DNA of 24,450 nucleotides from a virus. Taxonomy: Duplodnaviria > Heunggongvirae > Uroviricota > Caudoviricetes. The translations under genes and the position numbers were made by a program. The notes below the pieces were generated by a model. The model saw nothing but the letters and a program-made list of their open reading frames with translations. It searched no databases and was not told where the DNA came from. Of this stretch, positions 23,302-23,518 are shown piece after piece (the first letter of the stretch is position 1; each line of letters starts with the position of its first letter). The stretch lies in the IMG/VR virus record IMGVR_UViG_2534681774_000030; one strand, written 5' to 3'.

Positions 23302-23518
23302 ATGTACCAGATGGAAAAAATCACAACAGGTGTGTCATACACCACGTCAGCGGTGGGAACGGGCTACTGGTTCCTGCAGTTGCTGGACAGGGTTTCCCCC
23401 GTCTCAGTGGGCGGCAATAGGCGTGCTGGGGAGTCTGCTGTTTGGGCTGCTGACATATCTGACTAACCTGTATTTCAAAATCAGAGAGGACCGTCGTAAG
23501 GCGGCGCGGGGAGAGTAA
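23302..23518 (+). pseudogene. S: Class II holin S (933W-type), frameshifted by one extra C in a C5 run at 23397-23401
   Basis: N-terminal part [33 protein letters not shown] in one frame and ...[38 protein letters not shown] in the +1 frame; joined they give a 71-aa holin with dual-start motif; 217 nt is 72 codons plus 1. Confidence 0.8.

Follow-up and report, generated by a model that had tools for sequence, protein, structure and literature searches.

The DNA analyzed in this work, referred to below as the window, is a stretch of 24,450 nucleotides that comprises a lambdoid prophage adjoining ybhC. It represents the 3' end of the draft contig AIHE01000007.1 (95,822 bp; assembly GCA_000250295.2, E. 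coli DEC12E) minus a 115-base tail: positions 11299-24450 are 100% identical to this contig, which ends 115 bp beyond the window. The genes and elements are arranged in the order integrase, recombination genes, cI/cro, O, P, nin genes, LpxR-family moron, Q, esterase, hairpin, holin, ydfR, and lysozyme. The features relevant to the analysis are as follows:

8663..10616, minus strand: IS100, 1,954 bp, inside the antiterminator gene N, with the target duplication GTGGT and intact istA (340 aa) and istB (260 aa)
17704-18663, minus strand: LpxR-family lipid A deacylase moron, between the nin region and Q
21299..23152, plus strand: prophage sialate O-acetylesterase-type gene, 617 aa, intact (DUF1737 + SASA + DUF6645), from the open reading frame and domain matches
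23151..23154, plus strand: A4 homopolymer (A5 in all relatives with the cassette), sharing its first two bases with the end of the esterase stop codon (TAA, 23150-23152)
23234..23266, plus strand: terminator-like hairpin with a T7 tract in the gap between the esterase and the holin, from the sequence
23302..23518, plus strand: holin S gene, class II (phage 21 S / Stx-phage type), from the reading of both frames, alignment, PF04971, and identity to phage holins after repair
23396..23400, plus strand: C5 homopolymer with a +1 insertion that splits the holin, from alignments with relatives
23523..23866, plus strand: ydfR (DUF1327), between the holin and the endolysin, frameshifted here and 114 aa in relatives
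23529..23533, plus strand: A5 homopolymer (A6 in relatives) at ydfR codons 3-4, a -1 deletion 131 bp downstream of the holin change
23917..24450, plus strand: phage lysozyme, 177 aa, intact, the partner endolysin of the holin, from the open reading frame and PF00959

Apart from the holin, ydfR, and N, every gene called in the stretch that runs from the repressor gene to the endolysin has its full length. The T-tract of the hairpin, at 23260, varies among relatives between T6 and T7. In relatives, a short remnant annotated as a truncated antitermination protein adjoins the LpxR gene (~17490-17560). A polymorphic A run at 20492-20498 was observed in a 252-aa TfpB-like gene (ORF 19998-20756) downstream of Q: this gene is intact in the window and in the relatives L003, L005, and L006, and has one A fewer in strain 12A, where it is annotated as frameshifted, and in CYGG01000074.1. 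At the distal end of the prophage, the N-terminus of the lysozyme (KYGLSAAVLALIAAGASAP) is weakly hydrophobic and rich in Ala and Gly, and the E-x8-D-x5-T motif is present. Such a motif together with an Ala/Gly-rich N-terminal segment is typical of signal-anchor-release endolysins, and the lysozyme is predicted to be of this type from its sequence and its resemblance to phage 21 R.

The holin S gene spans 217 nt in the deposited sequence versus 216 nt (71 aa) in all relatives. By direct reading, the start codon is the ATG at 23302-23304, and the start frame, when followed through the C run, reaches a stop codon at 23464-23466; the second half of the gene sits in the frame offset by +1 and terminates at 23518. 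The frame breaks after codon 33, which puts the second transmembrane domain (TMD2) and the charged C-terminus out of frame. Removal of one C gives a 71-aa holin that matches the Pfam profile PF04971 (phage P21 holin S; curated cut-off of 26 bits) with 112.5 bits over profile positions 1-63 of 64, whereas the deposited 54-aa N-terminal product scores 35.6 bits and covers only positions 1-29 of 64. The hydrophobic segments of the repaired protein lie at approximately residues 7-28 and 36-58. Two transmembrane domains are characteristic of class II holins; as deposited, TMD2 is off the frame of the start codon and TMD1, and the two are joined only when one C is taken away. The repaired holin is 100% identical in amino acid sequence to its counterparts in Shigella phage POCJ13 and in several Stx2a-converting phages; identity of 99% or more was found for 74 phage records, and its exact sequence was found on at least 1000 contigs in a protein collection. 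It also contains a dual-start motif, MYQMEK, in which Met1 and Met4 are the predicted starts of the holin and antiholin forms. Since the deposited sequence differs by a single base from a very common intact gene, the split holin is not a chance pattern. The earlier note had described the locus as two halves of a 933W-type class II holin in adjacent frames, from which a 71-aa protein is recovered with one C fewer. The adjacent frames are as described, the label of Stx-phage/933W type agrees with the PF04971 match and the phage identities, and the 71-aa product is borne out by the repair and by the intact gene of relatives. The run of five C was likewise seen, at 23396-23400 rather than at 23397-23401. 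The comparison with intact S genes that had been proposed there gave a C4 tract in the nearest complete genomes, together with an annotated 71-aa "class II holin family protein" (WP_000284510.1).

All relatives examined have four C residues (C4) at the tract, and one Logan contig has three (C3). The C5 version had 0 exact matches in the 2,302 matching records obtained with a 67-nt probe from 5,426 complete E. coli genomes, and a 31-mer able to seed only on this version found no match in the complete E. coli genomes. Exact-pattern scans for C5 returned nothing in collections of species-representative genomes, viral contigs, and metagenome contigs, and the four possible products of the frameshifted holin were absent among ~15 billion proteins.

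The additional C is accompanied by further changes of the same kind. Within 421 bp around the holin, exactly two differences from the best complete-genome matches were found, both in run length (+1 C in the holin and -1 A in ydfR). The ydfR A5 variant had 0 exact matches in 901 matching records, and the A4 variant at 23151-23154, an intergenic A5 to A4 change without coding effect, had 0 in 1,595, both from the 5,426 complete E. coli genomes. In total, three private one-base homopolymer changes, one lengthening (C4 to C5) and two shortenings (A5 to A4 and A6 to A5), are located inside 380 bp. Three random picks from the 384 homopolymer runs of the window would fall within 380 bp with P ~0.001, and with P ~0.05 if the picks are restricted to the last 3.15 kb. 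The ydfR frameshift was absent from the earlier note. The intact homologue of ydfR matches PF07041; its remnant here is a 92-aa ORF that starts from the GTG at 23588 and equals EHX54017.1 (ECDEC12E_0693) of E. coli DEC12E. In an ENA metagenome scaffold (L010, ~950-990), ydfR has A6, but four bases (ATAA) are duplicated behind the site that corresponds to window position 23554; this different lesion nevertheless yields the same 92-aa truncated product.

Run-length variation at the same tracts was also seen in four Logan contigs, L007-L009 and L011 (SRR15989093/271/561/095), whose only differences from one another are in the length of homopolymers; compared with a complete genome, L009 and L011 contain only homopolymer contractions. 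Among the tracts affected in the Logan contigs are the holin C run, shortened from C4 to C3, and the ydfR A run, shortened from A6 to A5; L007 (2321-2437) has C3 at the former, with a 38-aa holin call. These four contigs were considered as independent confirmation of the ydfR A5 variant and rejected, since differences confined to run length are the mark of an error-prone platform; their variants look like run-length error in those sequencing runs.

The surroundings of the cluster were compared with those in 12A, a sibling strain (O111:H2) with a complete genome. Versus 12A, positions 1-8662 of the window show one substitution and no gap, and positions 10617 to ~22750 show nine differences, two of them in run length. 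Neither of these two is private to the window: one is common to other relatives, and the other is annotated as a frameshift in 12A. The segment 10617-12629 is identical in another relative. Comparison with relatives showed that the other ~23 kb of the window are free of private indels; at each remaining indel difference, either the window agrees with one or more of the relatives or just one relative deviates. Beyond ~22750, the ybhC prophage of 12A (L004) carries a different lysis module, and window positions 21321-24450 match a second 12A prophage at 1.91 Mb (L014), with 0 mismatches in 3,131 bp after the three run-length changes are undone. The 115-bp contig tail is identical to the latter prophage at 115/115 positions. 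Over the 3,245 deposited bases (21321-24450 plus the tail), DEC12E and 12A are distinguished by 0 substitutions and only three one-base homopolymer changes. Three tRNA genes (tRNA-Ile, tRNA-Arg, and tRNA-Arg) precede the esterase in this second 12A prophage; no tRNA gene was found anywhere in the window, and its interval from Q to the esterase (19800-21300) also lacks stx.

Relative to 12A, the ybhC prophage sequence gives way to the lysis cassette of the other prophage inside a ~1.45-kb esterase repeat (21321-~22750) that is common to the two 12A prophages. The same layout was found in the draft contig CYGG01000074.1, which has an intact holin and ydfR, and in O145:H28 genomes, so it can be natural. 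The DEC12E contig may be recombinant or may be a repeat-mediated mis-join, and a mis-join of this kind would itself account for thin read support at the contig end. The distance from the C run to the end of the contig is ~1.17 kb, and 12A contains five copies of the 421-bp holin-ydfR stretch (median of 2 and maximum of 15 places per genome).

The earlier note had also mentioned a disruption of N, and this is correct: the gene is interrupted after approximately codon 64 by the 1,954-bp IS100 at 8663-10616 with its GTGGT duplication, leaving fragments at ~8526-8662 and 10617-10808 on the minus strand. The IS100 copy has no indel relative to typical copies, and the contig runs straight through this 2-kb element. 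The open reading frame formed by the fusion of N' with the IS equals RefSeq WP_000332934.1, annotated as "antitermination protein N"; this 127-aa product of the N::IS100 junction is known only as a RefSeq protein and was found on no contig in the index, and the junction itself is absent from all complete E. coli genomes searched. These searches thus yielded no clone-mate of DEC12E. The suggested connection between the holin lesion and the N disruption is weak, as in 12A the lysis cassette belongs to a different prophage than the N-bearing one at ybhC.

We infer that the additional C is quite probably a homopolymer-length miscall in a thinly supported, repeat-derived contig end, in which case the real gene would be an intact 71-aa holin. 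The lysis cassette is present in multiple copies among lambdoid prophages. In the proposed scenario, the assembler may have extended the contig into the cassette on one or very few reads; the contig would then have broken 1.17 kb further on, and an uncorrected single-read error of a pyrosequencing-like type would have produced both over- and under-called runs, including the C4 to C5 change. Pure run-length changes in the absence of substitutions, a variant that occurs in no independent sequence searched, and a location at a contig end within a repeat, all of which were found here, are the features expected of an artefact. The density of ~0.8%, the restriction to indels in both directions, and the extent of about one read length near the contig end resemble single-read pyrosequencing error. 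The 454 Titanium platform is prone to errors of run length. As an indirect indication of the platform, E. coli drafts from the same laboratory and sequencing centre as DEC12E, and of the same year (2012), were produced from 3-kb paired-end 454 Titanium reads using Celera assembly (PMC3491183). Two broader sources of the changes were considered and rejected: a window that is noisy as a whole, since there are no private indels in its first 23.1 kb and the IS100 is clean, and a mutator strain, since the rest of the window is near-identical to 12A. Several points weigh against an artefact. If the DEC12E draft were Illumina-only, run-length errors at runs of 4-6 bases would be unusual. A collapsed repeat should show high rather than low coverage, and thin coverage is an assumption about read placement. 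Furthermore, the late genes of a prophage with N already interrupted by IS100 may be under relaxed selection, so that real decay would be unsurprising.

The reading in which the frameshift is real, i.e., a C gained by replication slippage that has turned this holin copy into a pseudogene with a 54-aa, TMD1-only product in a prophage that is already locked in by the IS100 in N and would be decaying or undergoing domestication, is considered unlikely, even though C5 is what the deposited sequence reads. It draws on the IS100 insertion in N with its target duplication, which should cripple late-gene expression and relax selection on S, on the adjacent ydfR, which is broken too and is differently broken (+4 ATAA) in the unrelated metagenome contig L010, and on the high quality of the unique parts of the assembly, which argues against general noise. 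In E. coli mutation spectra, however, substitutions are several-fold commoner than indels, and real prophage decay usually involves substitutions and lesions spread over the element. Here, three indels and zero substitutions separate 3.2 kb from the sibling strain, all three within 380 bp and one of them non-coding, and the other prophage genes, N with its IS100 excepted, show no decay. A pattern without substitutions in which the other genes are full length does not fit neutral decay, and the intergenic change among the three cannot be explained by selection for loss of lysis. In addition, C5 occurs in no other genome or metagenome searched, and the contig stops 1.17 kb past the site, which belongs to a multi-copy cassette. 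Between the two possibilities left side by side in the earlier note, a sequencing error is therefore favoured by the private C5, the three clustered changes, and the contig end, and lost lysis competence is the less favoured one.

Readings in which the C tract or the whole cluster has a biological cause of another sort are far less probable. It is extremely improbable that the tract acts as a functional switch, either by phase variation (C3/C4/C5) of holin expression or by +1 ribosomal frameshifting at CCC-CG. Depending on the data set, the tract has 3, 4, or 5 residues, CCC-N sequences are known +1-prone sites, and, as read from the sequence, a +1 slip of tRNA-Pro from CCC to CCG would restore ...VSP-SQW... 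exactly and provide a low level of full-length holin. Nevertheless, known phase-variable tracts are much longer than this run, an exact C5 match was found in 0 of the 2,302 matching records among complete genomes, and in each of the data sets with C3 or C5 run lengths are altered elsewhere as well, as is expected of technical error. Very little probability also attaches to a proposal in which the three clustered changes are all real and arose in an error-prone repair patch beside the prophage-prophage recombination junction in the esterase repeat (~21.3-22.75 kb), or in which the C tract serves as a slippage or +1-recoding switch that tunes the holin dose in a resident prophage.

If a homopolymer miscall is accepted as the probable origin of the fifth C, the split holin holds nothing biologically new, and a description of this prophage as "lysis-defective", or of its holin and ydfR as pseudogenes, would probably mistake assembly noise for biology. 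Inferences from the last ~1.7 kb of the contig, the attachment of which to the ybhC prophage is uncertain, call for the same caution. Should C5 be real, it would represent a commonplace inactivation by frameshift within a prophage that is already defective, whose late genes would be poorly expressed anyway because N is interrupted by IS100. In S21, TMD2 forms the hole; by analogy, the C5 product would be null as a holin. Signal-anchor-release endolysins, the predicted type of the lysozyme here, can be released slowly in the absence of a holin; lysis from the cassette would then rely on the slow spontaneous release of this enzyme, and its loss would be partial.

Three known systems can be compared with the locus. 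The repaired gene resembles the pinholin family of phage 21 S (S21 68/71; PF04971) in its length of 71 aa, end-to-end profile match, M1...M4 dual start, and two hydrophobic segments, as well as in its position ahead of a lysozyme whose N-terminal segment may be of the signal-anchor-release type. It differs from this family in that the deposited frame is broken after codon 33 and in that ydfR (DUF1327) lies between S and R, an arrangement common in such E. coli prophages. An inactivating IS in N and the broken holin and ydfR are reminiscent of the frameshifted lysis genes of defective or cryptic lambdoid prophages; unlike in those elements, everything else here is intact and identical to the sibling strain. 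The homopolymer errors of flow-based or long-read drafts, which concentrate in repeats and at the ends of contigs, are similar to the observed changes in that these are single-base, bidirectional, clustered, private to one draft, free of substitutions, and located in a multi-copy module close to where the contig ends.
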